A stretch of 64,000 bases of DNA from Bacteroidota bacterium (GTDB lineage Bacteria; Bacteroidota; Bacteroidia; Palsa-965). Made by a program: the position numbers and the translations under genes. Of the stretch, positions 13,711-63,046 are shown piece after piece. The stretch lies in contig JABDAO010000002.1 of the NCBI GenBank assembly GCA_013289095.1, positions 2,673 to 66,672 on the forward strand. The letters run 5' to 3'. How positions within the stretch are numbered: the first letter of the stretch is position 1; each line of letters opens with the position of its first letter. The notes beneath the pieces were generated by a model that saw only the letters and a program-made list of their open reading frames with translations, did no database searches and was not told the DNA's origin.

Positions 13711-13930
13711 TCTGAACCTGTAACCGGGCAACTTGACACAGGTAACGGGAAACTTGCGCGGGCGACCGGAAAACTTGCGCGGGCAACCGGAAATCTTGCG
13801 CGGGCAACCGGAAATCTTGCGCGGGCGACCGGAAATCTTGCGCGGGCAACCGGAAATCTTGCGCGGGCGACCGGAAAACTTGCGCGGGTGACCGGAAATC
13901 TTGCGCGGGCGACCGGAAATCTTGCGCGGG
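13711..13930. repeat. 21-bp tandem array #1 (unit CTTGCGCGGGCRACCGGAAAW)
   Basis: CTTGCGCGGG recurs 9 times at exact 21-nt spacing (13753 to 13921), with two degenerate units upstream. Confidence 0.95.
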
Positions 13931-14061
13931 TTCTTCTGCCACCCGTGCAGGCAAACGAACCGGATGAAGGTCTGGACCGTTTAGCGATGCATCAGGCTCC
14001 TGCAATCACCCGAAAAAGGAATTTACTCAACACTTATTCATTCATTTAAAACCTGCAAAAC

Positions 14062-14784
14062 ATGACAACCCTCAAGAAAGATTCGCGTATACCACGCAAT
14101 CACCCCAAATTCGATCTTTATATCAAAACAGCTGTTGCCTTCCTGCAGGGAGGCGGCACACCCAACAATGGTATCAGGCTGGGGCTTACCGCGGCCGACA
14201 TCACCCAGGCCCAGAGCATGCTCGCCATCTGGTATACGGGCAATGCGGCTTCGCCGGGTATCTACGAACAGCATACCAACCCCAATACCCGTACAAAGGT
14301 GACCACCCGGTTGGTAAAAGAGTTCATCATCAATTTCTCGGCTTTCTTCCGCTCGCTGTTAAATAGCATGGCCGGCAACAAAGCCATCACCCCGGCCGAT
14401 CGTGCCATGCTTAACATTGCCGCTCCCAACCCAGCCCGCAGCCAGCAGCGTCTGGCCCTGGTCAATACGGTGTATTTCGAGGGCAAGCCCATCGGGGGTG
14501 GAGAACTCAAGGTCTATTGCCGTACCGTAAAAGGCTCGAAACGGGGCAGCAAGGCCCCCGGCTCCGATTCGGTAGAGCTTTCGTACAAACTGGGCGACCC
14601 AGCGCCTACCGGAGGCGATGACCCAAACAACAAACACGAAATTTTTAGCCGTGCCGAATTCATCATGCCTTTCGGGGCATCCAATGCCGGTCAAAAAGTA
14701 CACCTCTTTGCCCGCTGGATCAACTCCAAACATAAACAACTGGCAGGGCCCTGGAGCCCGGTTACCAGTGTGTTTTTGGCATAG
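14062..14784 (+). CDS. Uncharacterised 240-aa protein: helical N-terminal half, beta-rich (FN3/Ig-like) C-terminal half
   Basis: Clean ORF with an A-rich upstream region. The C-terminus AGQKVHLFARWINSKHKQLAGPWSPV resembles a widespread unannotated family ending R-W-x-N-x(n)-GPWS (recalled, not searched). Confidence 0.8.
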   Translation: MTTLKKDSRIPRNHPKFDLYIKTAVAFLQGGGTPNNGIRLGLTAADITQAQSMLAIWYTGNAASPGIYEQHTNPNTRTKVTTRLVKEFIINFSAFFRSLLNSMAGNKAITPADRAMLNIAAPNPARSQQRLALVNTVYFEGKPIGGGELKVYCRTVKGSKRGSKAPGSDSVELSYKLGDPAPTGGDDPNNKHEIFSRAEFIMPFGASNAGQKVHLFARWINSKHKQLAGPWSPVTSVFLA

Positions 14785-15070
14785 GGGGGAGAGTTGGGGG
14801 GGAGGAAGCATTAGCGCCACAATCGTTGCAGCTGATGCTCCCCCTTACCTCTTCCTTGAGTGTATATGCTAAGCAGGCCGGGCAACCTGCAGGCTTCGTC
14901 ATCGCCCGCCCGGAGCATTTCTCTGAAGGATTCGCAAAGCATAAGCTGCAAGCCAAGGATGGGCCTGACAGCTATCAGCGGGTGCATCCGAAACGCCCGA
15001 CGCTTCAGCTCCTGAAAAGCATAAATTTCAGGGCTTTTATCTAAACCATAAACCCAATGGTTACAAATTA

Positions 15071-15400
15071 GGGTTCACTCAAAAAGTCGGCAATCTAGTG
15101 GAGGACGAATCGCCCTGTGCGCTGGGGAGTCCACGCGGAGAGCGAACTTCAAGATGGCTGGCGAGAAGCGATGGCCTGTGCTGAAAAGCCATCTTGAAGT
15201 TGGTCCGCGTGGGGCCTTTTTTGCGTTACTTTTTGGGCAAGCAAAAAGTAACTAAAAAATTCCTTTGAACACAAAGTTCGTCCACGTACTGCTTGGTGCA
15301 AGGGTTTTGATTGGAAACGGTATTTAGTATTGCATCTCAATGATGAAAGTGAGACATTATGTGTTGATTGGGTGATGGTTGTAGGTGTTTGAGTGAACAC
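15071..15400. mobile_element. MITE-like element with 13-bp imperfect TIRs and TA flanks
   Basis: Left end GGGTTCACTCAAA and right end TTTGAGTGAACAC (12/13 match), with TA on both sides. Nested internal inverted repeats: 15145-15159/15187-15201 (perfect 15 bp), 15131-15139/15204-15212, 15225-15235/15242-15252. No transposase. Confidence 0.6.
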
Positions 15401-15403
15401 TAA

Positions 15404-15613
15404 TTAGAGATGCCCTGGAGTTCACTCAAAAAGTCAGAACACGACAGGCTTCATTGCGTGTATTTATCAACCAATTAAAAGGTAGGTTTCATGAATCAAT
15501 CAGTAACCCCGCGCTGAAGCGCGGGGTTACTAACATTAGGGTTCAGTACCATATAGACTTTGGGCTTTAGCCACAAGGAGAAGTTTAGCTAAGGTTAGAT
15601 TGGGCTAAAGCCC
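15404..15613. repeat. Mosaic of REP/MITE fragments
   Basis: TTAGAGATGCCC end fragment (15404-15415); second GTTCACTCAAAAAGTC copy (15420-15435); perfect 13-bp hairpin AGTAACCCCGCGC/GCGCGGGGTTACT (15502-15531); GGGCTTTAGCC/GGCTAAAGCCC pair (15562-15613). Confidence 0.7.
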
Positions 15614-15698
15614 CAAGGTGTGGAGGAAACTTATTTTATTAATTTAATGCCGGAATTAGAGGTCTAAACTCATACGTAAAAACACCAAAACCCCAATT

Positions 15699-16172
15699 TT
15701 GAAAGTAACATTAATCCAAGTAGGCCGTACCGAAGAGCCCTGGTTAAAGGAAGGCATTGAAGTGTATGCAAAGCGGCTCGGGCATTATCTTCCGTTTTCG
15801 GTTGTGGAGCTGGCTGCTTTAAAAAGCAAGACGCGTCTTAGCCCCGAACAGCAAAAGGAAAAGGAAGGGGAGTTGATTCTGAAAGCGCTCATGCCCGGCG
15901 ATAAGGTCTATCTGCTGGATGAAAACGGAAAAGAATACAGCTCACCGGCCCTGGCCACCTTGCTGCAAATGCAGATGAACGGTTCTGTTAAAAATCTTGT
16001 TTTTATAATCGGGGGCCCTTTTGGGTTTTCAAAAGCCGTTTATGAACGATGCGATGGTAAGGTGGCCTTGTCTAAATTAACATTTACGCATCAGATGGTC
16101 AGACTGTTCTATACCGAACAGCTGTATCGGGCAATGACAATTCTGAGGGGAGAAAAATATCACCATGAATGA
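15699..16172 (+). CDS. rlmH: 23S rRNA (pseudouridine1915-N3)-methyltransferase
   Basis: LDENGK, FIIGGPFGF, LSKLTFTHQMVRLFYTEQLYRA, YHHE. TTG start. Confidence 0.95.
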   Translation: MKVTLIQVGRTEEPWLKEGIEVYAKRLGHYLPFSVVELAALKSKTRLSPEQQKEKEGELILKALMPGDKVYLLDENGKEYSSPALATLLQMQMNGSVKNLVFIIGGPFGFSKAVYERCDGKVALSKLTFTHQMVRLFYTEQLYRAMTILRGEKYHHE

Positions 16173-16205
16173 ATTGGGATTTGGGAATTAGGATTTGGGA
16201 TTTAA
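16171..16205. repeat. Heptanucleotide tandem repeat (GAWTTRR-type, 5 units)
   Basis: gaattgg gatttgg gaattag gatttgg gatttaa, directly after the rlmH stop. Confidence 0.6.
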
Positions 16206-16224
16206 GGAGTGATTCTGGATTTAT

Positions 16225-16319
16225 GGGCATCTCTAAAAACCCCGTTTTCTTGACCACTGCCTGACCCTCTCCGCCGCAGGCGGAGAGGGAATGTTTGGAA
16301 GGGGGTATTAGAGATGCCC
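16225..16319. mobile_element. 95-bp MITE/REP-like element, copy 1
   Basis: 19-bp imperfect TIR (GGGCATCTCTAA...) and internal perfect hairpin CCCTCTCCGCC/GGCGGAGAGGG. Near-identical to 26915-27003. Confidence 0.7.
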
Positions 16320-16387
16320 TTATTGGTAAATTGTTTTGAATTTCGGATTCGACAAGTTTAATTTTTTGTCTGCTAAAATCCCAAATC

Positions 16388-17401
16388 CTACAGGTTTTGT
16401 TCCCACTTCCAGGCGCTGAGCATCATTTCGTCGAGGTTGTATTTTGCCTTCCAGTGCAGGGCTTTTTCTACTTTGCTGCAGTCTGATGATATCGCTTCAA
16501 CATCTCCGGCTCTTCTTGGGCCAAGGGTGTAAGTTGGTTTTACCCCCGAAACTTTTTCGAAGGAAGCAATTGCTTCGAGCACGCTCACACCATTTCCGGT
16601 GCCGAGGTTTAAAACATCATACGTTTTAGCTGTTGTTTCGAGGTGCTCAAGTGCCAGTACATGGGCATTGGCAATATCGCTTACATGAACATAGTCGCGG
16701 ATGCAGCTTCCGTCGCGCGTGTTATAATCTGTTCCAAAGACAGTGAATGATTTTATTTTTCCGAGCGCCGTTCGGGTAATGAGGGGTACCAGATTTGTTG
16801 GTTTGTTGATGGGGCTTTCTCCCAGAAGACCCGATAGATGTGCGCCCACCGGATTGAAGTAACGCAGTGCAATGGCTTTGATGCCTGGTGTGGCGCGAAT
16901 AAAATCTTCGAGTATGCGTTCCCCGGCAACTTTGGTATAGGCATAGGGCGATTCTGCTTTTTCAAAGGGGGTTTGTTCGGTCACGGGTAATTGGTTGATG
17001 TTTCCATAGACCGAACAGGAAGAGGAAAAGATGATGTTTTTGATCTTGTTCTTGACTGCCGCCTTCAGGAGGTTGATCAAAGAACCGATGTTGTTTGAAT
17101 AATAGCCCAGAGGGTCGGCCACAGAGTCGGGTACAGATTTAAAGGCAGCGAAATGAATGATTCCATGGATATTCGGGTGGGCATCAAAAAAGGCATTTGT
17201 GGCTTCCTGGTCGCACAAATTGAAAGCGTACTGCTGAAAGCTTTTGCCGGTTATTTGTTTGACCCGATCATACGCATCGGGGGAGGAGTTGCTGTGGTTG
17301 TCGATTGATATCACCTCATAGGTGGGGTTGTTCAGCAGTTCGATGAGGGTGTGGGAACCGATGTAACCGGCTCCGCCGGTGACGAGGATTGTTTGTTTCA
17401 T
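16388..17401 (-). CDS. galE: UDP-glucose 4-epimerase
   Basis: VTGGAGYIGSHT, IHFAAFKSVPDS, FSSSCSVYG, SPYAYTK, LRYFNPVGAH, DGSCIRDYVHV. Confidence 0.95.
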   Translation of the reverse strand: MKQTILVTGGAGYIGSHTLIELLNNPTYEVISIDNHSNSSPDAYDRVKQITGKSFQQYAFNLCDQEATNAFFDAHPNIHGIIHFAAFKSVPDSVADPLGYYSNNIGSLINLLKAAVKNKIKNIIFSSSCSVYGNINQLPVTEQTPFEKAESPYAYTKVAGERILEDFIRATPGIKAIALRYFNPVGAHLSGLLGESPINKPTNLVPLITRTALGKIKSFTVFGTDYNTRDGSCIRDYVHVSDIANAHVLALEHLETTAKTYDVLNLGTGNGVSVLEAIASFEKVSGVKPTYTLGPRRAGDVEAISSDCSKVEKALHWKAKYNLDEMMLSAWKWEQNL

Positions 17402-17513
17402 AAGCCGTATCTAATCTGACAGAAATAGGGTTCTTCAAAAACGAATGTGAATGTACGCTCGAAATGGAGTAATCCGACCAACAGACCGGTCGGATAGTTC
17501 ACAAAAGTAAGCT

Positions 17514-18476
17514 TTAAGGCCGAATTTCGTCAAGAAGCTGTTTTACCCTATTGGAAAGATCACGACTCTGAATTTCTGCCCCCAGATGATTTAAGTGATT
17601 TGGGTCTTTCCAGTAAGAAGCAGAGGTTGAAAGACCGGGCAGGCTCAGTTCAAGATAGTTGATGTACGGTATTTTATTTTCACCACAAAGCAACTTGATT
17701 TTATCTGTAGAAGGTTTCAGATAGTCAGCCATAGCCCGGCTGAAATAGGGAGATGTGAAAAGAATAAGCCTGATATGTAGTCGTTTGCAAGTAGAAATAA
17801 TTGATTGCAGATCGGTAGTATATTCAGAAAGGAATTTGGCCGGAGGGAACACTTCCCGCTGAATAGAACGCAGGGTATAAATACTGTCGGTAGCTTCGGC
17901 CGGAATGAGATCATAACCGGTTTGAAGCTGTTTTGGATGCAGTACTGTTTTAAAATAATTATTTAACAGTGTAAGTACCCTGCCGTTATAACGATAGGTA
18001 TGAAAGTAAAAAAGATATTTTTTTGTTGACCCTTCGTTGTTAATCAGTGTGGTCACTTCCTCGTTTTTTCCGTAATAATAACGTAAAAATTCGACAGAGT
18101 TTAAGTTTTTTCGGGTGATACCCTCTTGTCCAAGATATTGACCAGGGTCTATCTGAAGCAGAATTGTTTTGGGGAGTTGTTTCTTTTCTTCAAGCACGGC
18201 CAGGAGTCCTCTTTGAAAGCAGTCGTCCGTTGCTGAATGCGCAATGTTGTATGTCGGCATCTTGAAACTATCTGGTACTACCTGATAATAAGCCCGAGAA
18301 TTTCCCATGATCAGGAGATCTGGCGGAGTGGGCAAGGAAAGATAATAATTGATCTTCCCTCCCGATTGTCCAGTCATTGTTTTGACATAAAGACAATCGA
18401 GAAAGGACGCAGCCAGCCGGTCCATTGTGAAAACAAGGATGAACAGTCCAGCCAGGTATATGCCAAACGATCTCAT
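17514..18476 (-). CDS. SGNH-like periplasmic partner of MBOAT #2
   Basis: N-terminal TM helix, MGNSRA (Ser block), WKDPNHLNHLGA (Asp/His block). Start overlaps the MBOAT stop (TAATG). Confidence 0.75.
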   Translation of the reverse strand: MRSFGIYLAGLFILVFTMDRLAASFLDCLYVKTMTGQSGGKINYYLSLPTPPDLLIMGNSRAYYQVVPDSFKMPTYNIAHSATDDCFQRGLLAVLEEKKQLPKTILLQIDPGQYLGQEGITRKNLNSVEFLRYYYGKNEEVTTLINNEGSTKKYLFYFHTYRYNGRVLTLLNNYFKTVLHPKQLQTGYDLIPAEATDSIYTLRSIQREVFPPAKFLSEYTTDLQSIISTCKRLHIRLILFTSPYFSRAMADYLKPSTDKIKLLCGENKIPYINYLELSLPGLSTSASYWKDPNHLNHLGAEIQSRDLSNRVKQLLDEIRP

Positions 18477-19906
18477 TAAAACTGAAAATAGATAAACTGA
18501 CCGCCTTCGGAATTGCCGAATAAGATGATCAGTAGGATTAATAAGCTGCTGAACCCGATTGTTTTGAATGAAACAATAGATCCATTCACGGGGTTAAAAA
18601 AAATTGCTTTGCGTAAAAAGAAGTATTCAATACTGAGGAGGAATGTAACAAGCAGAAGCATGGAGCAAAAGAGTCCTGTATCCTGAATTCTCAAGGTGAA
18701 GAAACCTGACGAGTGAAAGATATTACAAAGGATATACCAGGCTTGAGAAAATGTCTGGCTCCTGAAAAATATCCAGGCCAGACAAACCAGATTGAACGTA
18801 AAGAATGCTTTGGCCGCGCGTGAGAAAAAAGGTTGAGAGCCAGCCGGCGTCATGCTGCCGCCGGCTCCTGTGATTTTTTCGACAACCAAATACATGCCAT
18901 TGAGCGCGCCCCAGATCACAAAATTCCAGGAAGCTCCATGCCAGAGGCCTCCGAGAAGCATCGTGATCATCAGGTTCCGGTAGCTGAGAAATTTCCCTGA
19001 GCGGCTGCCCCCAAGCGGGATGTATAAATAGTCGCGCAGCCAGCTCGAAAGAGAGATGTGCCAGCGTCGCCAGAATTCGGTAATGCTTTTTGAAAAATAG
19101 GGAAATCTGAAATTCGTCATAAGTTCAAACCCCATGACCTGTGCTACGCCTACAGCAATATCGGAGTAGCCAGAGAAATCGCAGTAGATCATCAATGCAA
19201 AGGCCCAGGTTGCGACGCAGAGTGTAAACCCGGTATTCATCTGATAATTATCGTAAATAGAGTTTACGTAGACAGACAACAAATCGCCTACGGCCACTTT
19301 TTTAAATAATCCCCAGAGCATTAGTTGGAGGCCTCCGATGACTTGTTTCGATGAAAAGATATGTTTCTCCCGAAACTGGTGGAGCATATGTTGCGGACGT
19401 TCGATAGGCCCGGCCACAAGCTGCGGATAGAACATCACGTAGAGTGCATAGATCCCGAAATGTCGTTCAGCCTTTGCATTGCCGCGGTAGACTTCAATCG
19501 TATAACTTACCGCCTGAAAGGTATGAAACGATAAGCCAATTGGGAGCAGTATATTCAGATAGGGCAACGGATTGTCATGATGGGTCCACCTGAAAATCGA
19601 AGTAATATTTTCGTTTAGGAAATTGTAATACTTAAAGAAAAACAGGGTTCCGAAATTGGCTATCAAACTTAGAATAAGGAACGTCTTTTTTCGTTTCGTT
19701 CCAGCTGATGTCTCAATGTATATGCCAGCAACATAATCTACACCGATGGTGAAGAAAAGGATTAGAATATAGATAGGGATAAAGTACAAGTAAAAATAAC
19801 AACTGGAGAAAAGCAATAAAACCCACCGGTAGCGATGAGGTAACGCATAGTATCCGAGCGACACTACACCAAAAAAAAGGAAGAAAGTGAGTGAATTAAA
19901 CAGCAT
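18476..19906 (-). CDS. MBOAT family O-acyltransferase #2
   Basis: LPIGLSFHTFQ, FYPQLVAGPIER, FWRRWHISLSSWLRDYLYIPLGG, GLWHGASWNF, FIYFQF. Confidence 0.92.
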   Translation of the reverse strand: MLFNSLTFFLFFGVVSLGYYALPHRYRWVLLLFSSCYFYLYFIPIYILILFFTIGVDYVAGIYIETSAGTKRKKTFLILSLIANFGTLFFFKYYNFLNENITSIFRWTHHDNPLPYLNILLPIGLSFHTFQAVSYTIEVYRGNAKAERHFGIYALYVMFYPQLVAGPIERPQHMLHQFREKHIFSSKQVIGGLQLMLWGLFKKVAVGDLLSVYVNSIYDNYQMNTGFTLCVATWAFALMIYCDFSGYSDIAVGVAQVMGFELMTNFRFPYFSKSITEFWRRWHISLSSWLRDYLYIPLGGSRSGKFLSYRNLMITMLLGGLWHGASWNFVIWGALNGMYLVVEKITGAGGSMTPAGSQPFFSRAAKAFFTFNLVCLAWIFFRSQTFSQAWYILCNIFHSSGFFTLRIQDTGLFCSMLLLVTFLLSIEYFFLRKAIFFNPVNGSIVSFKTIGFSSLLILLIILFGNSEGGQFIYFQF

Positions 19907-20348
19907 TGTTTACAATAAATTCAGACTGTTCACCCGATGAGCCGGTGTGCAGACTCATCAAACTTGTCAACTTCCTGCCGGGTTTAAATTAAATTTGTAT
20001 TATTAGATGGTTTGTAAAAATAGCAAAAAGCATAATAGTATTCCGAAAATGTAGTCACGTACTTTTGATTTTAAAGACAGCACTTGGTATATGTGCATTC
20101 GTTTCCTGGGCCAGACCACCGGGCCCGGATATTAGGGACAACGTCATATTTTTGTAGCTTTGAGTTTCACAACTTGAATTTTGCCGGGTTTCGGAGATGG
20201 ATTAGCGGTATATTTTGCCATTCTACCGCTGAGCTGTTGATCTGCCTTCGATGCATTTGGGTGCGTGATTTAGACCCCTTGTTTTAAAAGTGACTCGTAA
20301 ATGACTGATCCTGGTTAACTTGTCCGGAGCTTGATTCAAATATAGGAT

Positions 20349-21740
20349 ATGGAAGATGAGGTTGTAAACAGAGGGTATTTGGAAAGCCTTGGCTCGGTTG
20401 AGCTCATGGCCTTCCCGTTCTACCTGTTTATTATTTTCTATCTGTCGTATGCCTATCAGATGAAACGCATTGGGAATAACCCGTCCTATACTTATTTTTC
20501 AAAAGGATTGATGGTTAAACTGATGGGTGCGCTCTTTTTTTGTTTGTGCTATATCTACTACTATCAGGGTGGAGATACCATCGCCTATTTTGAGTCTTCG
20601 AGGTCTTTTGTGAATTTGCTGCAACTACGCCCCAATTCATTTTTAACGGTTTATTTCGGATCCAATTCGGTTGAAAATTACTCGCAGTTTGATATGTTCA
20701 CCGGATTACCCTTCAAATATATGTATTTCGAAGGACGGACCATGTTCGTTATTAAAATCATTTTCCCCTTCGTCCTGCTCGGGTTTAAAAGTTATCTGAT
20801 TTCTACAATTCTGCTCTCTGCCACCTCTTTTCTGGGGATATGGAGGATGTATCAGGTATTTGTGAGGTACTACCCAGAGTATTATAAACAGATTGCGATC
20901 GGCTTTCTTTTTCTGCCTACTGCAATTTTCTGGGGATCCGGAATCCTTAAAGACACGATCACACTGACGGCATTTTGTTGGTTTGTAAGTTCCTTCGAAA
21001 AAGGGATTATTTCACGCGAGAAAATAGTGGTGAATGTACTGATAGCACTTCTGGCAGGATATATTATCCTCCTCATCAAACCCTATATTTTGATGGCTTG
21101 TGTTCCGGGGATGTTTGCCTGGATGTTTCATCAGCGTGTTGCGAAGATAAGAAACAAGTTCCTGAAGGTTTCAGCCATGCCGATTATCTATGCGTTAAGT
21201 ATTGTTCTTGGGATTGGTATCATGGCCCTCCTTGGCGATAGGCTAGACAAATTTTCGCTCAACAAAGTTTTATTTTCGGCCAAGGAATCACAGATGGATT
21301 TGAAAAACGATGCATATGAGGGCCATGGTTTCGATATTGGCTCGTATGACGCATCCGTACAAGGCGTGATGGGCAAAGCTCCCATTGCAATCGTTTCCGG
21401 ATTGTTCCGGCCTTTTATCTGGGAAGCAAAGAATTTTGTAATGCTCTTGTCGGCGCTGGAGAATCTGGCTTTTCTCTATTTATTTATCTACCCATTTGTG
21501 AAAATCGGGTTCAAAAAAACCGTGCTCATCCTTTTTGACAATCCCTTACTGTTTTTTCTATTCTCCTATTCGGTTTTCTTTGCCTTTTCAATCGGTATTT
21601 CTACCTCGAATTTTGGGGCGCTGGTCAGGTTTAAGATCGCTTTTGCCCCATTCCTTGCAACCCTGCTCTTAATTTTGTACGGACTTAAAAGCAAGAAGAA
21701 GGTGAAGAAAATAAACCAGTCGGCATACCAGTCAAGATAA
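20349..21740 (+). CDS. Polytopic membrane protein, putative Wzy-type polymerase or GT-C enzyme
   Basis: About 11 TM segments, GGDTIAYF loop, FWGSGILKD, LFRPFIWE, NFGALVRFK. Located in a glycan locus. Confidence 0.6.
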   Translation: MEDEVVNRGYLESLGSVELMAFPFYLFIIFYLSYAYQMKRIGNNPSYTYFSKGLMVKLMGALFFCLCYIYYYQGGDTIAYFESSRSFVNLLQLRPNSFLTVYFGSNSVENYSQFDMFTGLPFKYMYFEGRTMFVIKIIFPFVLLGFKSYLISTILLSATSFLGIWRMYQVFVRYYPEYYKQIAIGFLFLPTAIFWGSGILKDTITLTAFCWFVSSFEKGIISREKIVVNVLIALLAGYIILLIKPYILMACVPGMFAWMFHQRVAKIRNKFLKVSAMPIIYALSIVLGIGIMALLGDRLDKFSLNKVLFSAKESQMDLKNDAYEGHGFDIGSYDASVQGVMGKAPIAIVSGLFRPFIWEAKNFVMLLSALENLAFLYLFIYPFVKIGFKKTVLILFDNPLLFFLFSYSVFFAFSIGISTSNFGALVRFKIAFAPFLATLLLILYGLKSKKKVKKINQSAYQSR

Positions 21741-21885
21741 TCAGGTAAATAGTCAATGGCTGATATTCGGGTGGTTTATACCTGAATTTTCCGGAAAAGC
21801 CTGACTGTTGAGAAGGATAATGGGCAACAGACATTGTGATTTCTTTCACCCCCCCCCGCCTGATTTTTATTTTTCTCTTGGGATT

Positions 21886-23540: not shown

Positions 23541-23543
23541 AGT

Positions 23544-32751: not shown

Positions 32752-32856
32752 GTGTATTTACGAAGGAGAAGAGTGTATTTACGAAGGGAAAATGTGTATT
32801 TACGAAGGAGAAGAGTGTATTGATGAGGAAGAAGAGTGGACTATGTAGAGGAGAGG
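32752..32856. repeat. 21-bp tandem array #2 (unit GTGTATTTACGAAGGAGAAGA), short and degenerate
   Basis: Units start at 32752, 32773, 32794 and 32815, with a degenerate unit at 32836. Confidence 0.8.
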
Positions 32857-32938: not shown

Positions 32939-32993
32939 GAAACAGGGTCACTTTTAAAATCGAAACAGGGTCACTTTTAAAATCGTTTGTACT
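32939..32993. mobile_element. Solo IS21-like terminal fragment (23-bp direct repeat x2)
   Basis: GAAACAGGGTCACTTTTAAAATC occurs twice in tandem. The reverse-complement end AGTACAAACGATTTTAAAAGTGACCC resembles the IS21-family layout (TG terminus, AAAA-x-TGACCC, repeated internal binding sites), recalled from memory. No transposase nearby. Confidence 0.45.
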
Positions 32994-33403: not shown

Positions 33404-33406
33404 GAT

Positions 33407-56331: not shown

Positions 56332-56554
56332 TTGTCAAGCTTAGGGTTCGGAAATTTAGCAGATATTTCGGTGAATTAGGCAAAATTATGCAATTATATG
56401 AATCCTGTAAACCGGAATTCAGTCTCACTGGATTCTGATCCTTTTAGCTATCAGGAATCCTTAATTAATTTTCATTTAATTATAGACATCAAGTACACTT
56501 GATGAAAGATCAGGCAGTTGAAAAGCTCGTTTTGTTTTGAGATTTTCCAGTTCC

Positions 56555-57523
56555 CTAACGCTTTTTAACTCCATCTTGATTAGTGCTTCCGATGTTTAGT
56601 TTTTTTCTCACCTGGTTGCCTATAATAATTGAGTAGTAGGCAGCTCCACTGGTGTTCAAATGTTCGGTGTTTCGAAAGAATTCTCTGTGCTCGCAAAGCC
56701 GGAGGGTGTCTTCGCGAACGAAATCCAATTGACGGGTGGAAGCAATGTGGGTGATCTTTTTGAAAATTTCCTTGGAGTCCAGAACATGACGTTGATAATT
56801 TTTGTTGTACTCAGGTGCCGATGTTAGGAGGAGTTTGATGTTTTTCGAATTACACAGGTCTATGATATGTTCCAATAGTTGTACTCCTTCTTCATCGACA
56901 GGCTGACTCATAAAACGGGTGATGGTATCGGCATTAGACATTTCCAAAAGGGTGTTAGTAGAATACCCCTTATATTGAAACTCATGACCGAGTTTTTGTT
57001 GATTTTCGAGCAGACCTTTTAAAGCATCGGCTAATATTGGATACTCATCGTCCGTAAAATGCAGGAAGGGCAGCAGGCGAAATCTCCAGGGTATGGGTGC
57101 CGCTTTCTCGAGGGTTTTCTCTAGTATGGTGTTGGAAAGATAGGGTCGGTAAGGCATCGATGTCTTTATTTTCTGGCCCAGGTTGAATGAGCCCAGATCG
57201 AGTGTCAGCACGATATACTCGGGCGCAGGATGGACGAGGAGGTAGGCATTGAGGATCATGTTTACCTCAAACAGATTTGCTCCGTCTATTCCGCTGTTGA
57301 TCGAATGCAAACCGGTAACACGGTCAAAAATGGCCGGATTAATAAAATAGTGAATACTCGAGGAGCCCAGGAGCAGACAGTTGTAGGCGGTTGGACGTAC
57401 AAACAGCTCATCCATTTTTTCGTGCTCGCATTTCCCGGCTTCACGCGAGGCAATCAGAAAGGCGAGCTGACAAATAATGCATGCAAGGAGGAGCGAAAGA
57501 ATAATCCGGTAGAACGGTTTCAT
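56555..57523 (-). CDS. SGNH-like periplasmic partner of MBOAT #4
   Basis: N-terminal TM helix (start MKPFY at 57523), LLGSSS, FFRNTEHLNTSGA. Confidence 0.75.
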   Translation of the reverse strand: MKPFYRIILSLLLACIICQLAFLIASREAGKCEHEKMDELFVRPTAYNCLLLGSSSIHYFINPAIFDRVTGLHSINSGIDGANLFEVNMILNAYLLVHPAPEYIVLTLDLGSFNLGQKIKTSMPYRPYLSNTILEKTLEKAAPIPWRFRLLPFLHFTDDEYPILADALKGLLENQQKLGHEFQYKGYSTNTLLEMSNADTITRFMSQPVDEEGVQLLEHIIDLCNSKNIKLLLTSAPEYNKNYQRHVLDSKEIFKKITHIASTRQLDFVREDTLRLCEHREFFRNTEHLNTSGAAYYSIIIGNQVRKKLNIGSTNQDGVKKR

Positions 57524-57567
57524 AGCAAAGAAATCAGGTAGTGCCGCAATAAAAAATAAGCAAAGAA

Positions 57568-59007
57568 TTATAGTTTGGAATAGATGAACATCGAGCTTGC
57601 ACTCGTTCCAAAGATAAGAATCAGTGAAAGAATGATCGAACAAAAGGCTATATCAGCATATGCATTGTCCCATCGTGCTCCAATTTCCCCTTTTATAAGC
57701 ATGTGTATGATGATGAGCAGGGCAATAAAGAGGATGGAAAGGATAAAATTGGTGTACCCAAAGCTGGGTAACAGAAAGGCTGAAAAAGAGAGCGGGGTTT
57801 TCCAAAAGTGTCCGAGCTCACGGATCACGTATATTGAATCGGAGATTGATTGAGCCCTGAAGAATATCCAGCTGAAAGTGATCAGGATAAAGACTGTTAT
57901 CATGGATGGCACAGATACCCATCCGGATTTAAGACCGAGTGAAAGTTTCAATCTGAAATTTCGGGTTAAATATTCATACACCAGAATACTGCCGTGAAGC
58001 AATCCATAGGCCAGAAATGTCCATTGCGCACCATGCCACAGTCCACTGAGAAGAAATGTCGTGAGCAATGCAATCACAACCGACCAATCCCTGAGTGATG
58101 ACATGCTTGCAAAGATTGGCTTGAACAGATAATCATTATACCAGACGGTGAGTGTGATGTGCCAGCGTCGCCAGAATTCGGCCATCGATTTGCTCCGAAA
58201 AGGTTTGTTGAAGTTTGGGGAGAGCCTGAAGCCCAGGATCCGTGCTGACCCGATGGCGATGTCTGTGTAACCCGAAAAATCGCAATAAAGCTGGACGGAG
58301 AAGAAAAGCACGGCAAGCGAGAGGGTGTAGGCATGGAAATCATGCGGGTGCTGATAAACAGTATTCACATAGAGGGCGAGTCGGTCGGCAATGACCACTT
58401 TTTTGAAGAAACCCCAGAGCATCAGCCTTAGCCCGGTGAGGAGGTTTTCGGTGTTAAACAGGTGATTCTCTTTGAATTGAGGTATCAGTGCATAAGGTTT
58501 TTCGATCGGGCCATTGATCAGTTGTGGAAAAAAGAGAGCAGATGATGCATAGACGATGAAATTTCTTTCAGCACTCATTTTTCCACGGTATATCTCAATA
58601 AGATAGCTGATGGAACGCAAGGTATGGAAGGATAAGGCAAGAGGTAAAATTAAATGCAGGTACGGAAGGTGGCTGGTGGTCAGACCGAACGAGGACAAGG
58701 CTTCATTGATTGATTCGGAAAAAAAGTTGAAATACTTAAAAAAGAACAATACACACAAGTGGATGCTGATCGAAGCGAGATAGATTGATTTCTTCTTAGG
58801 CTGGGCTGTGCGTTCGATCAGGATTCCAGCCCCGTAATCAAGGAGAACCAAGGCGAGAAGCAGGAGAATATAAGTGGGTATAAAAGCCATGTAGAAGATA
58901 CAGCTTGCCAACAATAAATGCAGGGCCCGGTATTGATGGGGCATTAAAAAATACAACAGGGCAACGAGTGGAAAAAAAAGTAAAAATTCGAACGAATTGA
59001 AGATCAT
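57568..59007 (-). CDS. MBOAT family O-acyltransferase #4
   Basis: MIFNSFEFLLFFP, FPQLINGPIE, FWRRWHITL, GLWHGA; C-terminus FIYSKL. Confidence 0.9.
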   Translation of the reverse strand: MIFNSFEFLLFFPLVALLYFLMPHQYRALHLLLASCIFYMAFIPTYILLLLALVLLDYGAGILIERTAQPKKKSIYLASISIHLCVLFFFKYFNFFSESINEALSSFGLTTSHLPYLHLILPLALSFHTLRSISYLIEIYRGKMSAERNFIVYASSALFFPQLINGPIEKPYALIPQFKENHLFNTENLLTGLRLMLWGFFKKVVIADRLALYVNTVYQHPHDFHAYTLSLAVLFFSVQLYCDFSGYTDIAIGSARILGFRLSPNFNKPFRSKSMAEFWRRWHITLTVWYNDYLFKPIFASMSSLRDWSVVIALLTTFLLSGLWHGAQWTFLAYGLLHGSILVYEYLTRNFRLKLSLGLKSGWVSVPSMITVFILITFSWIFFRAQSISDSIYVIRELGHFWKTPLSFSAFLLPSFGYTNFILSILFIALLIIIHMLIKGEIGARWDNAYADIAFCSIILSLILIFGTSASSMFIYSKL

Positions 59008-59249
59008 GTGCTGAATAAGGTTGGGGAATATCCCTGTGTCTTCATAGATTCAATCCGACTCAACCCGTTTTCAGACCCCCAAAGTGAAGTTGAAGCCGAT
59101 GAGTCGCTCTTTTTCGCTGATAAATACTGGATTTTAAGCAAATGAACCACTTATTTCTGCATTTGCCAAGATATCTGGTCTATTTTTATACCGAATTATG
59201 CATTAAAAGTAGTCAGTCGCCTTAAAAGGCCAGCAAGCACAACGAACCC

Positions 59250-59302
59250 GCGGGATAACCCATCCCGATGACTATCCGTACCGCGCAAATCCTAACACAC
59301 TG
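59250..59302 (+). repeat. REP-like element, second copy
   Basis: GCGGGATAACCCATCCCGATGACTATC... matches the reverse complement of 48893-48947. Confidence 0.5.
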
Positions 59303-59419
59303 TGCATTAGCGCACAAGCCATCTAATGCATAATCTGGGTTTAGGCGATGTTCCTGTTCACGTTCATAAGTCGGTTAATTAGTTGCCTTCCCACCCCTTC
59401 CCAAACGATCCCTATTCAG

Positions 59420-59427
59420 TAATTTTG
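59420..59427 (+). promoter_or_regulatory. -7 promoter element TAATTTTG for ddl
   Basis: TAnnTTTG match 25 nt upstream of ATG 59452. Confidence 0.5.
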
Positions 59428-59451
59428 AGAAACATTCGTCTATTCATTGCC

Positions 59452-62145
59452 ATGAAACTCAAAATCGGAATCATCTTCGGGGGCCAGTCCAGGGAGCGCG
59501 AAATATCATTTGCCGGGGGACGGACCGTTTATGATAACCTGAATAAAGCGCTCTTCGAAGCGGTCCCGTTGTTTGTCGACAGCTTTGGAAATTTTCTCCT
59601 TCTCAACTGGGAATATATTTACAAAGGCAGCATCCGCGATTTTTATCCTCCTGCTGAAACCCTCCCCCCAGACAATGATGATTTTCAGCTCTATGCCGAA
59701 AGTCTGGGTCCTGCTTCGGCCGAGCAACAACATCGTCTGGCTGCCCGGCTCGGGAAACGAATACCGGTTTCAGAGCTCAGCAAGCACATCGATTTTGCAT
59801 TCCTGTGCCTCCATGGGGCCTTTGGGGAAGACGGTCGTATCCAGGGTCTGTTTGAATATTTTCATATCCCGTATTCGGGTTCAGGGATCCTTCCATCAGC
59901 CATTGGCATGGATAAAGCCGTGCAAAAACGTTTGATGACAGGGGCCGGCTTTAATAGTCCCCCTTTTCTTTCTTTTCACCGCAGGGAGTGGGATGCCGGC
60001 CATGAACAACATTTTTTTGAGAGGGCGTCAGCTCAGATCGGTTTCCCGTTGGTGGTGAAAGCAGCTCATCAGGGATCCTCCATCGGCATCAGCATCCTTC
60101 CTGATTCAGACTTCCAGGCTTTTTGTGGAGCGGTTGACCGAAGCTTTTTTATCCGACGTATTCAACCGGCTGAATGGAATCGACTCAACCACGACCAGAA
60201 AACAGATTTCATCCGGGTGCTTTGCGATATCCGCGAAGGAATAGGCATCCCCGTTAAAGCCGGGGCCCGGGTGTTTTATCTCCCGGCCGATTTGCTGACC
60301 TTTGTGAATGGATATTTCAGTAATCCCGAAACATCCGGACAGATTCTTACACTCGAATCGTTGGATGGTGAAAGCCAGGTGCTACTCGAAGGCTTTATCA
60401 GCGGACGTGAATTTTCATGCATCGTCCTGCAGGATGAGGCGGGCAGGCCCATTGCATTGCCCCCTACCGAGATCAGGAAAGGAAAGGAATTGTTCGATTA
60501 TCGTTCAAAATACCTGCCAGGTCTGAGCCGGAAGATTACCCCGATCGATTTGCCGGATACACAAATACAAGAAATCCGCGAACAATGCGAAACGCTTTTC
60601 GCCGCCCTTGAATTCGACGTTTATGCCCGTATCGACGGGTTTATCACAGCCGAAGGAAAGGTGTTTTTAAACGACCCGAACACCACCTCGGGCATGATGC
60701 CCTCCAGTTTCTTTTTTCACCAGGCTGCCGAAATCGGGTTGAACCCCTCGCAGTTCATCACCTACATTATCCGTACTTCGCTAAACTCCCGGATTCAGGC
60801 TTCGATGAACAGCGGAAGGTATGACGAGCTTCTTAAAAATCTGGAGGATGCCCTTTTAAAAGAAAAGACAGCGGGGGCCAGTAAGACCCGTATTGCTGTC
60901 TTGTTCGGAGGCTATTCATCCGAAAGACATATTTCAGTCGAGAGCGGCAGAAATGTCTATGAAAAACTTTCCTCTTCTGATAAATACGCCCCAATTCCCG
61001 TATTCCTTACCGGTAACGACAAAGAACATATCCTCTATGAGGTTCCTGTAAACTTGCTTCTGAAAGACAACGCCGATGATATTCGGGAAAAGGCCGAACA
61101 TTACCTCGTTCATCCGGTAGTCAAAGAGATCATCCGGCGTTGCTCCTTCATCACCGAAAAATACGCTCCCTCCTCGCGATTGCTGGAACCCCGCAGAATC
61201 ACATACGATGAACTAGGAACCTTGGCTGATGGTGTTTTTATTGCCCTGCATGGACGCCCGGGAGAGGATGGGGCCGTCCAGGAAAAACTGGAACAGATTG
61301 GCCTGGCCTATAATGGCTCTGATAAAGGAAGTTCAGAAATCACAATCGATAAATACCGCACCAACGAGATCCTGCTCAAGCACGGTCTGCTCGTTGCCGA
61401 GCACCTGTTGGTTACCAGGGCCGACTGGGATCAGCATGCTGATAGCGTAAAGAAACATATCCTGGAAAAGATCGGCCTTCCCTTTATTGCCAAACCTGTT
61501 GATGACGGTTGTAGCTCTGCCGTTAAAAAAATCAAGACTTTTGAAGAGCTGGATGCATTTGCCGCGTTGATTTTTCGGCTTTCTCCAAACCTCGATCCGG
61601 TTTCATCCGATGTATTGCATATCAAACCCAAGGAAGAATTTCCCATAAAACCTCTCTTCCTGGTCGAAGAACTGATTTCAAAACGCGATGCATTGCACTT
61701 TTTGGAAATAACCGGTGGAATGCTCACCCGGATGAACGACGAGGGTGAACTGGTTTACGAAGTGTTCGAAGCCAGTGAGGCCCTGAGCGAGGGTGAAGTC
61801 TTATCGCTCGAGGAGAAATTTCTGGCCGGGCAGGGCCAGAACATTACACCTGCCAGGTATTCAACGGATAAGACGATTCAGCAAAAGATCTCTGCCCATG
61901 TCAAATCCGAGTTGGGCAAGGCCGCCAGGTTCCTGGGGGTGACGGGTTATTGCCGCATTGATGCGTTTGTAAGAATTTACGAAAAAGGCAGGGCCGAAGT
62001 GATCTTCATTGAAGTCAATTCCCTGCCGGGGATGACACCCGCCACCTGCATCTTCCATCAAGCAGCCATTGATCAGCTCAAACCCTACGAGTTTATTGAT
62101 AAAATCCTTGATTTTGGGTTTAGAAAGAATTCACTTCACGCTTAA
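59452..62145 (+). CDS. ddl: D-alanine--D-alanine ligase with two tandem ligase modules
   Basis: Module 1: IFGGQSREREIS, LHGAFGEDG, DYRSKY, RIDGF. Module 2: LFGGYSSERHIS, LHGRPGEDG, RIDAF, EVNSLPGMT. Confidence 0.9.
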   Translation: MKLKIGIIFGGQSREREISFAGGRTVYDNLNKALFEAVPLFVDSFGNFLLLNWEYIYKGSIRDFYPPAETLPPDNDDFQLYAESLGPASAEQQHRLAARLGKRIPVSELSKHIDFAFLCLHGAFGEDGRIQGLFEYFHIPYSGSGILPSAIGMDKAVQKRLMTGAGFNSPPFLSFHRREWDAGHEQHFFERASAQIGFPLVVKAAHQGSSIGISILPDSDFQAFCGAVDRSFFIRRIQPAEWNRLNHDQKTDFIRVLCDIREGIGIPVKAGARVFYLPADLLTFVNGYFSNPETSGQILTLESLDGESQVLLEGFISGREFSCIVLQDEAGRPIALPPTEIRKGKELFDYRSKYLPGLSRKITPIDLPDTQIQEIREQCETLFAALEFDVYARIDGFITAEGKVFLNDPNTTSGMMPSSFFFHQAAEIGLNPSQFITYIIRTSLNSRIQASMNSGRYDELLKNLEDALLKEKTAGASKTRIAVLFGGYSSERHISVESGRNVYEKLSSSDKYAPIPVFLTGNDKEHILYEVPVNLLLKDNADDIREKAEHYLVHPVVKEIIRRCSFITEKYAPSSRLLEPRRITYDELGTLADGVFIALHGRPGEDGAVQEKLEQIGLAYNGSDKGSSEITIDKYRTNEILLKHGLLVAEHLLVTRADWDQHADSVKKHILEKIGLPFIAKPVDDGCSSAVKKIKTFEELDAFAALIFRLSPNLDPVSSDVLHIKPKEEFPIKPLFLVEELISKRDALHFLEITGGMLTRMNDEGELVYEVFEASEALSEGEVLSLEEKFLAGQGQNITPARYSTDKTIQQKISAHVKSELGKAARFLGVTGYCRIDAFVRIYEKGRAEVIFIEVNSLPGMTPATCIFHQAAIDQLKPYEFIDKILDFGFRKNSLHA

Positions 62146-62297
62146 TATTCGAAATCTTTCGTTCAGCTGAAAGGAATGGCCTTCTTCTTCGTCCCAAAGT
62201 TGTCAGTATAGCCGTTGGCATTCCTGTTGGGTTAGAGGGCGTTGATGAATCGGCTGTTTCTGCTCATTCTTCTACTGTCAAAACGTTCCCTCCCAAA

Positions 62298-62962
62298 GAT
62301 CTCTGTTTAAGCTTACCCACTGCTTGCCCGGGATTCCGGATGCCGTTGCTTAAGATCCCTGCCTGTTCCCCAGGGTTTTCGACATGTTCCCCAGAGTTCC
62401 CGACATGTTCCCCAAGCTTCCCGGCATGTTCCCCAAGCTTCCCTACATGTTTACTAAGCTTCCCGACATGTTTGCTAAGGTTCCCGACATGTTTACTAAG
62501 CTTCCCGACATGTTCCCCAAGCTTCCCGACATGTTTGCTAAGCTTCCCGACACGTTTACTAAGCTTCCCGACACGTTTACTAAACTTCCCGACATGTTCC
62601 CCAAGCTTCCCGACATGTTTACTAAGCTTCCCGACACATTTACTAAGCTTCCCGACATGTTTGCTAAGCTTCCCGACATGTTTACTAAGCTTCCCGACAC
62701 GTTTACTAAGCTTCCCGACATGTTCCCCAAGCTTCCCGACATGTTTGCTAAGCTTCCCGACATGTTTCCCAAGCTTCCCGACACGTTTACTAAGCTTCCC
62801 GACATGTTCCCCGAGGTTCCCGATATGTTCCCCAAGGTTCCCGACATGTTCCCTGAGGTTATCGACACGTTCCCCAAGGTTCCCGACATGTTCCCCAAGC
62901 TTCCCGACATGTTCCCCAAGGTTCCCGACATGTTTACTAAGCTTCCCGACATGTTCCCCAAG
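62298..62962. repeat. 21-bp tandem array #3 (unit AAGCTTCCCGACATGTTCCCC and variants)
   Basis: 27.5 well-conserved units (62384-62962) plus about 4 degenerate units on the left. No spacers. Confidence 0.97.
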
Positions 62963-63046
62963 CCTTGGCTACCCGAAGCCTTTGATTGGATTATTCAAAC
63001 AGACCCGATAGATCCTGACTGAAGTTTAGTAAATTTGAATCCGTAT

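Follow-up and report, generated by a model that had tools for sequence, protein, structure and literature searches.

In contingency loci, short tandem repeats stand 5′ of a gene, as do the 7-bp repeats of hmw1A and hmw2A in Haemophilus influenzae and the TAAA repeats of nadA in Neisseria. Slippage changes the copy number of such repeats, and expression can be tuned in this way. Another group comprises plasmid iterons and partition centromeres, such as the 22-bp iterons of R6K and parC of R1 and pSK41; here each Rep–iteron and ParR–parC pair has its own repeat sequence. The BOX elements of Streptococcus pneumoniae contain a boxB unit of 45 bp in few copies. Binding sites of LytTR regulators (AgrA, ComE, SilA) consist of 9–10-bp direct repeats with 11–12-bp spacers, which amounts to a 21-bp register (PMC2766830). 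Lastly, BrickBuilt, a MITE/minisatellite of Porphyromonas gingivalis, is a single family which has a unit of 23 nt and is found in one species (Klein et al. 2015, PMC4596501). BrickBuilt elements carry promoters and their repeats are transcribed, one locus having been called a putative sRNA (PMC4596501).

We relate these systems to three tandem arrays in a window of 64,000 nucleotides, which is the whole stretch of DNA analysed here. An earlier note had described three intergenic arrays of period 21, and TRF finds exactly these three, each with a period of 21 and 0% indels. Array 1 (13748..13930, plus strand) holds 8.8 copies of GGAAATCTTGCGCGGGCGACC with a 93% match and stops 131 bp short of the start codon of gene X (14062..14784, plus strand), as we call the gene of a 240-aa protein. 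By family clustering it belongs to family 12, which has one further copy, on contig C17. Its fold as RNA or single-stranded DNA has a z-score of −3.6. About 350 bp 5′ of the array, reading of the sequence reveals a promoter-like motif of the Bacteroidota type (13371..13402, plus strand), composed of TTGAC (13371–13375), 19 nt and TATATTTG (13395–13402). Between this motif and the array lies a 68-bp segment (13535..13601, plus strand) with 78% blastn identity to a paralogous locus, C24, and this is the sole flank sequence shared with such a locus. Apart from this block, the array flanks in the window are unique genome-wide. Further downstream, between gene X and rlmH and outside the array module, a repeat search detected a small MITE-like element (15066..15405, no strand assigned) with 18-bp terminal inverted repeats AATTAGGGTTCACTCAAA; the same terminal motif also borders family-1 arrays on C16 and C6.

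Array 2 (32752..32838, plus strand; 4.1 copies of GTGTATTTACGAAGGAGAAGA) occupies a divergent gap within a polysaccharide locus and is a short member of family 1, which is dispersed over the genome in 16 arrays (5.2 kb). Array 3 (62380..62963, minus strand) is the longest, with 27.8 copies of GGGAAGCTTAGGGAACATGTC in minus-strand reading and GGGAA every 10–11 bp. It belongs to family 0 (19 arrays, 8.8 kb in the genome) and lacks the leader and tail present on most copies of that family. A degenerate edge of the insertion (62146..62379, minus strand) runs from the ddl stop codon to the regular array, and on the other side the array ends 67 bp 5′ of the conserved −7 box TAAATTTG (63030–63037) of a PASTA-domain gene. 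The three arrays had been placed at accessory junctions. This description holds in part. Array 1 is located next to an orphan gene, with hppA and rlmH on either side, array 2 in the divergent gap mentioned above, and array 3 separates two core genes, a double ddl and the PASTA-domain gene, as a lineage-specific insertion. The insertion measures ~815 bp: the ddl-to-PASTA gap is ~900 bp here and ~85 bp in same-genus genomes lacking the array. No empty site is definable for array 1 in same-genus genomes; synteny 3′ of hppA is lost there, so that its insertion limits cannot be set.

All three arrays consist of non-coding DNA, and their repeats belong to three sequence families unrelated to one another. 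Arrays 1 and 3 had been proposed to align in one register. At their best rotation and strand, 10–11 of the 21 positions mismatch and shuffled units do equally well in 19–63% of trials; the match is not significant, and a common origin based on it is rejected. Their likeness at the peptide level stems from the same weak DNA match and is not independent of it. Alignment over all rotations and strands against shuffles does not bear out homology among the three window arrays either. The statement that only array 1 keeps a downstream gene stands, as no remnant of the 240-aa family is found beside arrays 2 or 3. The window contains no Rfam families and no tRNAs, and a CRISPR array is excluded because the units are contiguous and have no spacers.

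A genome-wide TRF run on the source assembly, that of an uncultured and repeat-rich member of Bacteroidota, places the window arrays in a much larger population. Period 21 accounts for 178 of 448 rows, and the periods 42, 63, 84 and 126 for 72, 24, 16 and 8 rows, respectively (120 together). Every other period has at most 11 rows; only 6 rows show period 20 and 4 show period 22, and periods 18, 24 and 27 are not enriched. Period 21 is thus far above chance, and the parity with other periods which by the earlier note would have spoken against a shared system is not seen. That proposal is sound as regards the period-21 phenomenon, but a common sequence does not explain it. After family clustering, the genome holds 152 arrays in ~39 unit families, which add up to 30.5 kb or ~1% of the assembly. 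The window arrays belong to a ‘period-locked’ class with units of 21 bp or multiples thereof, usually holding a short inverted repeat, which is present in some other Bacteroidota too. In a TRF sample of four genomes (G440, G000, G005 and G078) array density was ~62, 52, 10 and 0 per Mb, respectively. If confirmed, densities of ~50–60 per Mb would explain the hard assembly of some genomes of the phylum. Within the source genome, 11 of 63 array-bearing gaps are convergent, as expected from the 17% among all gaps. Most arrays in this genome thus have no tie to a 5′ region, and no genome-wide bias toward 5′ regions is seen across these 63 gaps.

The units share geometry rather than sequence. Their GC content varies between 17% and 69%. 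None of the k-mers common to unit families exceeds the shuffle maximum, the best candidates being GGAAC and AAGTT, and no universal core motif emerges. Dyad symmetry is enriched: the mean best stem is 4.24 compared with 3.49 in shuffles (z = 5.2), and the source-genome families alone give z = 4.3. Furthermore, 31 of 33 gene-linked arrays fold better than their column-permuted versions (p = 1e-9). A purine/pyrimidine harmonic at 10.5 bp is detected (z = 3.9) and AA/TT clusters once per unit. The arrays have no 10.5-bp harmonic of A/T or AA/TT and thus give no indication of classical A-tract curvature. Variation within arrays is clustered in 3 of 74 cases at P < 0.05, the chance level; hence no part of the unit appears more constrained than the rest, unlike what is expected for a sequence-specific site. 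The higher-order periods 42, 63, 84 and 126 occur both in the source genome and at other loci. In one case, arrays beside an identical protein in three samples measure 181, 179 and 158 bp, that is, they differ by about one unit.

The protein encoded by gene X comprises an N-terminal helical domain (residues 14–116) and a C-terminal FN3 sandwich (residues 138–238) in an AlphaFold2 model with a pLDDT of 94.9. Foldseek matches cover the FN3 part only, no match was obtained in Pfam, PHROG, NCBIfam, PADLOC or PDB sequences, and neither fold nor profile comparison indicates a function beyond the FN3 domain. Reading of the sequence gives no hydrophobic signal-like stretch at the N-terminus. Family X has 777 clusters in a 50% representative library and a patchy distribution: it is found in none of 400 sampled genomes of the phylum and reaches 4–7 copies in carrier genomes. 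The scanned metagenome and viral contigs gave no matches to it. Cultured carriers exist, namely Mangrovibacterium lignilyticum BM_7, M. marinum DSM 28823 and ‘Alistipes’ sp. ZOR0009.

The source genome encodes four X paralogues, ~50% identical as proteins, each with a different 21-bp array upstream. The distance from array end to gene start is 99–132 bp with the ORF start, or 110–160 bp with the HMM-aligned start. In three other genomes, 10–11 of 15 X paralogues have an upstream array, as do metagenome lineages of X at 34–40% identity. We then consider a sample of 40 X loci from Bacteroidota (~35 GTDB species, including Bacteroidales, Mangrovibacterium and Chitinophagales). Here, 26 of the 40 carry an array of period 21n which ends 48–300 bp before the ATG, and at the loci with such an array 71 of ~90 strong TRF rows have a period of 21n. 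About one third of X loci have no nearby array; a Paludibacter locus shows a divergent LuxR-type regulator in its place, and a plain promoter is present at the locus of ‘Alistipes’ sp. ZOR0009. The helical+FN3 architecture recurs in a second family, Y. Among 30 Y loci examined in six genomes, ~20 carry an array of period 21 or 42 located 120–550 bp upstream. X and Y show no sequence homology, with an hhalign probability of 0.15%, and have the architecture alone in common.

The cassette of array and orphan gene suggested earlier for array 1 thus recurs in the source genome and in many others. Array 1 belongs to an undescribed and widely conserved pairing of a 21-bp array with the gene of a small uncharacterised protein; in the literature searched, we found no account of Bacteroidota arrays with 21-bp units that are tied to genes. 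At X and Y loci, the unit sequence is fully replaced while period and position are kept. Selection on repeat period rather than on sequence would be unusual in bacteria, and it would suggest that the geometry of the DNA or the number of repeats is what is being sensed. If confirmed, the pairing also offers a way into the study of two widespread, uncharacterised proteins.

Promoter geometry at X loci was compared by means of the −7 box (TAnnTTTG), whose background is 0.41 per kb per strand. The box occurs in none of 32 spacers between array and ATG and is absent within the arrays too. All five array-less X loci have one at −73 to −91. Upstream of the arrays, a sense box lies at 77–142 bp in 7 of 28 loci, an interval chosen post hoc, and three of the four paralogues in the source genome have one at about −350 to −400. 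Two of these, C24 and C79, show it at −347 and −398, a relative position like that of the motif at array 1. Given the background, this motif is suggestive only, and the promoter-box statistics for the arrays are weak.

How might such an array work? We tentatively favour, at somewhat less than even confidence, a helically phased and copy-number-variable cis-regulatory array of dyad-symmetric units in the promoter or leader region, a proposal drawn from sequence patterns. Array 1 is the upstream half of a conserved two-part module with the gene of the small helical+FN3 protein, and it would be positioned between promoter and gene or just 5′ of the gene. A dimeric or oligomeric factor would meet the same dyad-symmetric site once per unit, always on one face of the helix; alternatively, the units may act as hairpins or as a roadblock. 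Growth and shrinkage by whole units, through slippage or unequal recombination, would lead to heritable variation in gene expression. Concerted evolution would swap the unit sequence while selection would hold the period, because only multiples of 21 keep register with 10.5 bp per turn. The analysis shows how the arrays are built, their enrichment, dyad symmetry and non-coding nature, the conserved linkage to the gene and the insertion of array 3; that the arrays regulate, that a factor binds them and why the period is kept are what we infer. The dispersed families of arrays 2 and 3 spread in the manner of the minisatellite-bearing BrickBuilt MITE, and array 3 landed just 5′ of the promoter of the PASTA-domain gene. 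If confirmed, the module may represent a new tunable promoter or leader architecture in Bacteroidota.

The period could also be kept by descent alone, and this is the core of the rival which survives best, although we consider it unlikely. It states that the arrays are selfish or neutral minisatellites without function, derived from BrickBuilt-like non-autonomous mobile elements, that their 21-bp period comes from one ancestral array and was kept by unit-wise slippage alone, and that the helical+FN3 genes travel within such elements or tolerate their landing. Family-0 and family-1 copies elsewhere in the genome do share modular leader and tail flanks and, as in BrickBuilt, coexist with flank-less copies; arrays 2 and 3 belong to these two families, the commonest dispersed ones, as copies that lack both gene and flanks. 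None of 40 related genomes, five of them from the same genus, contains the family-0 unit, and array 3 is a lineage-specific insertion. Arrays occur in every kind of intergenic gap, variation within units is unclustered, the occurrence of multiples of 21 only is what descent predicts, and gene X is patchy. However, a neutral array is expected to decay, to be deleted or to drift to 20 or 22 bp. Instead, position and period are held at X and Y loci across several orders, the array persists among paralogues only 25–50% identical despite full turnover of the unit, and the units are enriched in dyad symmetry. In addition, the presence of a different unit at each paralogue in one genome makes a single array-recognising transposase unlikely.

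According to a second rival, which we regard as rather improbable, the arrays act as RNA. A long 5′ leader or a separate small RNA would display the 21-nt units as a string of hairpins, which would control stability or translation or titrate an RNA-binding factor, maybe the helical+FN3 protein itself. The self-complementarity of the arrays agrees with this, as does the location of the visible canonical −7 boxes, all of which lie 5′ of the array and none in the spacer that leads to the gene, and BrickBuilt offers a precedent in its transcribed repeats with one putative sRNA (PMC4596501). The promoter evidence is statistically weak, though, and there are no Rfam matches. Sense and antisense strands fold equally, the sense strand being more stable in 13 of 33 arrays, which speaks against strand-specific RNA structure. 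Base composition adds a weak purine bias alone (p = 0.04).

Binding-site arrays for sequence-specific regulators form a third rival, distinctly unlikely in our judgement. Either LytTR proteins would bind, or the arrays would be iteron- or centromere-like with each paralogue binding its own array. The LytTR version has the documented register of 9+12 or 10+11 bp in its favour (PMC2766830), and the source genome contains 10 LytTR genes. Furthermore, a stand-alone LytTR gene lies directly 5′ of the array at one locus (L032), a membrane LytTR protein is encoded upstream of X at another (L169), and in five genomes four X or Y genes are located ≤2 kb from a LytTR gene. Against it, the arrays lack the conserved 10-bp core with variable spacer, as columns cluster in the 3 of 74 arrays mentioned above, and they are not consistently placed between LytTR genes and X or Y genes. 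None of the window arrays has a LytTR gene beside it, and elsewhere the neighbouring regulators are of many families (LuxR-like, XRE, Crp, LytTR).

Regarding the other version, a unit of its own for each paralogue is reminiscent of Rep–iteron and ParR–parC pairs, and the window arrays follow the iteron-type pattern of tandem repeats of ~17–22 bp in helical register. An iteron- or centromere-like nature had been put forward in the earlier note, but the loci are chromosomal and lie beside housekeeping genes, and the adjacent helical+FN3 protein has no Rep or Par match and no recognisable DNA-binding fold. The neighbours in the window are a H+-pyrophosphatase gene (hppA), rlmH and polysaccharide genes, with no gene of Rep, ParA, ParB or ParR type. 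As a way of working, phased binding is conceivable, given that the units are dyad-enriched and the period equals two helical turns; the lack of a conserved core or core-plus-spacer anatomy speaks against it.

It is a long shot, but the arrays and the X/Y proteins may be co-evolving recognition pairs in which each paralogue would bind the array beside it, either in the DNA or in a leader RNA. If true, they would constitute a new class of chromosomal, self-specifying nucleoprotein module whose period would be set by the geometry with which a protein oligomer spans two helical turns. The gene-less arrays, of which this genome has hundreds, would then be orphaned or mobilised binding platforms.

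The weakest reading, in which arrays would encode heptad-repeat peptides (21 bp being seven codons), is close to refuted by the sequence patterns. In its favour, the period is divisible by three, array 3 is open in 3 of 6 frames and array 1 in 5 of 6, and a gene caller placed a 98-aa ORF on one array. However, several arrays contain stops in every one of the six frames, and 4 of 33 gene-linked arrays lack an open frame in the sense direction. Open frames are as common in sense as in antisense (1.45 versus 1.42 of 3 frames), stop-to-stop frames reach just tens to ~300 bp past the arrays, the other codon-multiple periods 18, 24 and 27 show no excess, and implied sequences such as LARATGN lack a coiled-coil pattern.

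Returning to the favoured reading of a helically phased cis-regulatory array, its components can be compared with the known systems. Plasmid iterons and partition centromeres share with the arrays described here the ~20–22-bp tandem direct repeats in helical register, and in both cases the array adjoins a gene whose product could bind; iteron sequence is specific to the replicon as array sequence is to the paralogue. In contrast to them, our arrays are chromosomal and numerous, have no Rep, ParA, ParB or ParR gene and no conserved unit core, and the adjacent protein is of helical+FN3 fold and lacks any known DNA-binding domain. LytTR operators resemble the arrays in that they are direct repeats which follow a 21-bp register and lie 5′ of promoters. 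They comprise two repeats with a conserved 9–10-bp core, whereas here up to 32 contiguous units occur with no core-plus-spacer organisation, and LytTR genes adjoin the arrays just occasionally.

BOX elements, like the arrays, are modular, dispersed and non-coding, with variable internal units between end modules. They show neither period-locking over unrelated units nor linkage to a gene family, and both are seen here. Contingency loci are similar in that a tandem array is placed just upstream of a gene. The units described here are much longer and dyad-symmetric, and their length corresponds to two helical turns, so that a change in copy number leaves helical phase unaltered. Moreover, the arrays are conserved with their gene family across orders, while contingency repeats are conserved within one species.

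Finally, BrickBuilt and families 0 and 1 are alike in many respects. Both are found in Bacteroidota, consist of spacer-less tandem units of ~21–23 nt, are always intergenic, and occur as tens of dispersed, species-specific copies with modular leader and tail, some of them flank-less. Since families 0 and 1 behave like BrickBuilt, arrays 3 and 2 of the window, respectively, do too. The window arrays are spacer-less intergenic repeats outside long ORFs, with many dispersed and lineage-restricted copies in the case of arrays 2 and 3, as in BrickBuilt; their unique flanks do not contain the leader and tail of that element, and neither terminal inverted repeats nor target duplications were established for them. 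BrickBuilt is a single family, while here ~39 unrelated unit families share a period of exactly 21 bp which recurs in other orders. In addition, no gene family has been described as linked to BrickBuilt, while array 1 forms part of a conserved module of array and gene.

Non-coding arrays that are rich in dyads and locked to one period form a class found across the source genome, and three of them lie in the window. Tandem Repeats Finder (TRF) recovered these where the earlier note had placed them: array 1 on the forward strand (13748-13930; 8.8 copies of GGAAATCTTGCGCGGGCGACC, 93% matches), array 2, also forward (32752-32838; 4.1 copies of GTGTATTTACGAAGGAGAAGA), and array 3 on the reverse strand (62380-62963; 27.8 copies of CGACATGTTTCCTAAGCTTCC). 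No long ORF contains any of them. The assembly is an incomplete MAG (2.95 Mb, 167 contigs, 62% complete, 47% GC) in which contig breaks often fall within arrays. The proposed enrichment of period 21 was confirmed throughout this genome: it accounts for 178 of 448 TRF rows, and periods 42, 63, 84 and 126 contribute 72, 24, 16 and 8 further rows. Since any other period reaches at most 11 rows (six for period 20, four for period 22), the enrichment is real and very large. Merging the rows leaves 152 arrays that cover 30.5 kb in total, and many of these lie where contigs end. Genome-wide, arrays are found in tandem, divergent and convergent gaps roughly as often as the abundance of each gap type predicts. 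The unit consensuses cluster into ~39 families; array 3 is one of 19 in family 0 (8.8 kb), array 2 one of 16 in family 1 (5.2 kb) and array 1 one of two in family 12. A common register of arrays 1 and 3, as formerly claimed, was not found: the best rotation and strand leave 10-11 mismatches in 21 positions, which shuffled units equal in 19-63% of trials.

Array 1 precedes a 240-aa ORF (14062-14784), a member of family X, which has no matches in Pfam, PHROG, NCBIfam, PADLOC or PDB sequences. Its AlphaFold2 model (pLDDT 94.9, 60-sequence alignment) confidently predicts an N-terminal helical domain followed by a C-terminal FN3 sandwich, and Foldseek matches are confined to the FN3 part. A six-frame search revealed four X paralogues of ~50% identity in the source genome; X was found in neither the five same-genus genomes nor the 400 genomes sampled from the phylum. 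Upstream of every source-genome paralogue lies a 21-bp array, from a different family each time, whose end is ~110-160 bp before the HMM-aligned start. A profile run against 1.84 billion representative proteins recovered 777 clusters of X, whose members all stand alone and are 225-260 aa long.

The array-plus-X arrangement recurs among the lineages and genomes whose DNA was retrieved. In three metagenome lineages (X identity 34-40%), arrays of 11.3, 8.6 and 3.7 copies end 67-72 bp before the gene; two further lineages carry 7.2 and 9.8 copies at 136 and 103 bp upstream, and in three further genomes with 4, 7 and 4 paralogues a 21/42 array lies directly upstream at 10-11 of 15 loci. Scanning GTDB with a single genome for each species yielded 44 X loci in ~35 species, among them Bacteroidales MAGs, Paludibacter, Mangrovibacterium and Chitinophagales. 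The upstream DNA is complete at 40 of these loci, and at 26 of the 40 an array of period 21, 42, 63 or 84 bp ends 48-300 bp before the ATG; the period is a multiple of 21 in 71 of ~90 strong TRF rows from these loci. Array 1 is part of a conserved array-plus-gene module; an empty site for it was sought and none was definable.

Several features were noted around X genes. The gap between X and rlmH in the window contains a MITE-like element of ~340 bp (15066-15405) with 18-bp terminal inverted repeats, AATTAGGGTTCACTCAAA, whose terminal motif also flanks family-1 arrays on two other contigs, as well as two perfect or near-perfect hairpins (15502-15531 and 15558-15617). Upstream of array 1, the H+-pyrophosphatase ORF extends ~70 codons (12870-13086) past the end of same-genus DNA similarity at 12869, which points to a stop codon that has shifted or to a C-terminal tail specific to this lineage. 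In other organisms, X is often flanked by several type IX secretion cargo genes (Por_Secre_tail; four loci); X itself lacks a C-terminal domain of this type, and no signal peptide was seen on reading its sequence. At seven loci of Paludibacter MAGs, X is paired with a divergent 245-aa regulator in which a C-terminal LuxR-type HTH motif was read by eye. At these loci the nearest 21-bp array is ~1 kb off, beyond the regulator gene and not directly upstream of X.

Period-locked arrays are linked across orders with two gene families of modelled helical and FN3 architecture, X and a second family, Y. When array-neighboring ORFs of the source genome were clustered, Y (~215 aa) was the sole other recurrent family. 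No sequence homology between Y and X was detected; the Y model predicts the same arrangement of domains. Y is multi-copy in all six genomes searched (3-16 copies per genome), and a 21/42 array lies 120-550 bp upstream of about 20 of 30 Y loci. The same-genus genomes thus have period-21 arrays of their own, made of other units. In 400-kb samples, ~25 arrays were found in one X/Y-rich genome and ~4 in a same-genus genome; a control from the same class had no array that reached three copies. In one same-genus genome, six paralogous Y genes have a ~37-bp element of 86-97% identity 100-190 bp upstream, which could be a shared promoter or operator.

Array units are unrelated between loci, with a GC content of 17%-69%, and no k-mer is common to them above the shuffle maximum. 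Besides the period, all they have in common is dyad symmetry over short stretches: the mean for the best perfect stem of a unit is 4.24, versus 3.49 in shuffled units (z = 5.2), and the symmetry is also found among source-genome unit families (z = 4.3). The units show a harmonic at 10.5 bp for purine/pyrimidine (z = 3.9) and none for A/T, and one cluster of AA/TT steps each (z = 3.4). Arrays often have higher-order periods (42, 63, 84 and 126), and in three samples the array upstream of one identical protein is 181, 179 and 158 bp long, so that lengths differ by about one unit; both observations point to change by unit-wise slippage or unequal exchange.

The reason for which the period is kept has to be inferred. 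With a 10.5-bp helix, only multiples of 21 put successive units on the same face; we therefore favor a function which reads geometry or repeat number. In our preferred model, which is tentative, the array would be a phased cis-regulatory scaffold within the promoter or leader region, and its copy number could change. It is rather unlikely that the arrays are nothing more than selfish or neutral minisatellites. Descent with unit-wise turnover accounts for the restriction to multiples of 21, but not for a period that has not shifted to 20 or 22 even where the sequence has been wholly replaced.

With ORFs and motif matches as the basis for gene starts and promoters, none of 32 array-to-ATG spacers at X loci, and none of the arrays, contains the Bacteroidota -7 box TAnnTTTG. 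It occurs at -73 to -91 in five of five array-less X loci, on the sense strand 77-142 bp upstream of the array at 7 of 28 loci, and ~350-400 bp upstream in three of the four X paralogues of the source genome; the window has a promoter-like motif at 13371-13402 (TTGAC, 19 nt, TATATTTG). The background is 0.41 boxes per kb per strand, and among these results only that for the array-less loci is statistically strong. The other positions suggest that the array may lie in a transcribed leader. Folding is better than in column-permuted arrays for 31 of 33 arrays (p = 1e-9); since the sense and antisense strands of the 33 fold equally well, the symmetry is a property of the duplex and not of one transcript. 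An RNA-level leader is improbable.

Slightly less probable again are sequence-specific operator or iteron-like arrays, including a 9+12 register as documented for LytTR (PMC2766830). A regulator gene often lies directly upstream of X, and its family varies: LuxR-like in Paludibacter, Mangrovibacterium and one MAG, LytTR at two loci, XRE at one and Crp at one. Variable columns are clustered within arrays in only 3 of 74 cases at P < 0.05, so there is no conserved core with a looser spacer. The heptad-peptide modules proposed in the earlier note are very hard to credit and were rejected, since stop-to-stop frames, examined in 84 arrays of at least 120 bp, extend only tens to ~300 bp beyond the array, some arrays have none of the six frames open, X-linked arrays have on average 1.45 of 3 sense and 1.42 of 3 antisense frames open (no open sense frame in 4 of 33), and periods 18, 24 and 27 are not enriched genome-wide.

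Array 2 lies in one divergent promoter gap of a large surface-polysaccharide locus (16388-58000), a block of lower GC (40-44% versus 49-52%) rich in sugar-nucleotide, glycosyltransferase and acyltransferase genes; in the same intergenic region, 100 bp from the array, a 23-bp unit, GAAACAGGGTCACTTTTAAAATC, is perfectly duplicated in direct orientation (32939-32985). Array 3 separates ddl from a PASTA-domain gene, and its end lies 67 bp before the latter's conserved -7 box. As this gap measures ~900 bp here versus ~85 bp in same-genus genomes, array 3 is an insertion of ~815 bp. The product of the adjacent D-Ala-D-Ala ligase gene (59383-62145), 920 aa long, fuses two Ddl modules, both of them complete, with two Dala_Dala_lig_N and C matches; its C-terminal module is kept beside the PASTA-domain gene in same-genus genomes.

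The flanks of arrays 2 and 3 are unique in the source genome. Most other family-0 arrays lie between a common leader and a common tail, in two variants, and none of 40 related genomes contains the family-0 unit. In the leader, degenerate units of 21 bp accompany a short array whose unit, CAAGGCATCACGTAGCCTTG, is palindromic and which was observed before family-0 arrays on six contigs; farther out lies a ubiquitous ~100-bp hairpin element (…GGGATAACCC…CGGGACACACACAAGGCTTAACGCACGTTGCATTAGC…), so that each such element combines several repeat modules. The flanks of family-1 arrays are mosaics of several types. BrickBuilt, a MITE/minisatellite of Porphyromonas gingivalis with a 23-nt unit, has 19 copies, 11 with both flanks and three with neither (PMC4596501). 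Family-0 and family-1 arrays show this reported anatomy, with leader and tail flanks and some copies devoid of them.
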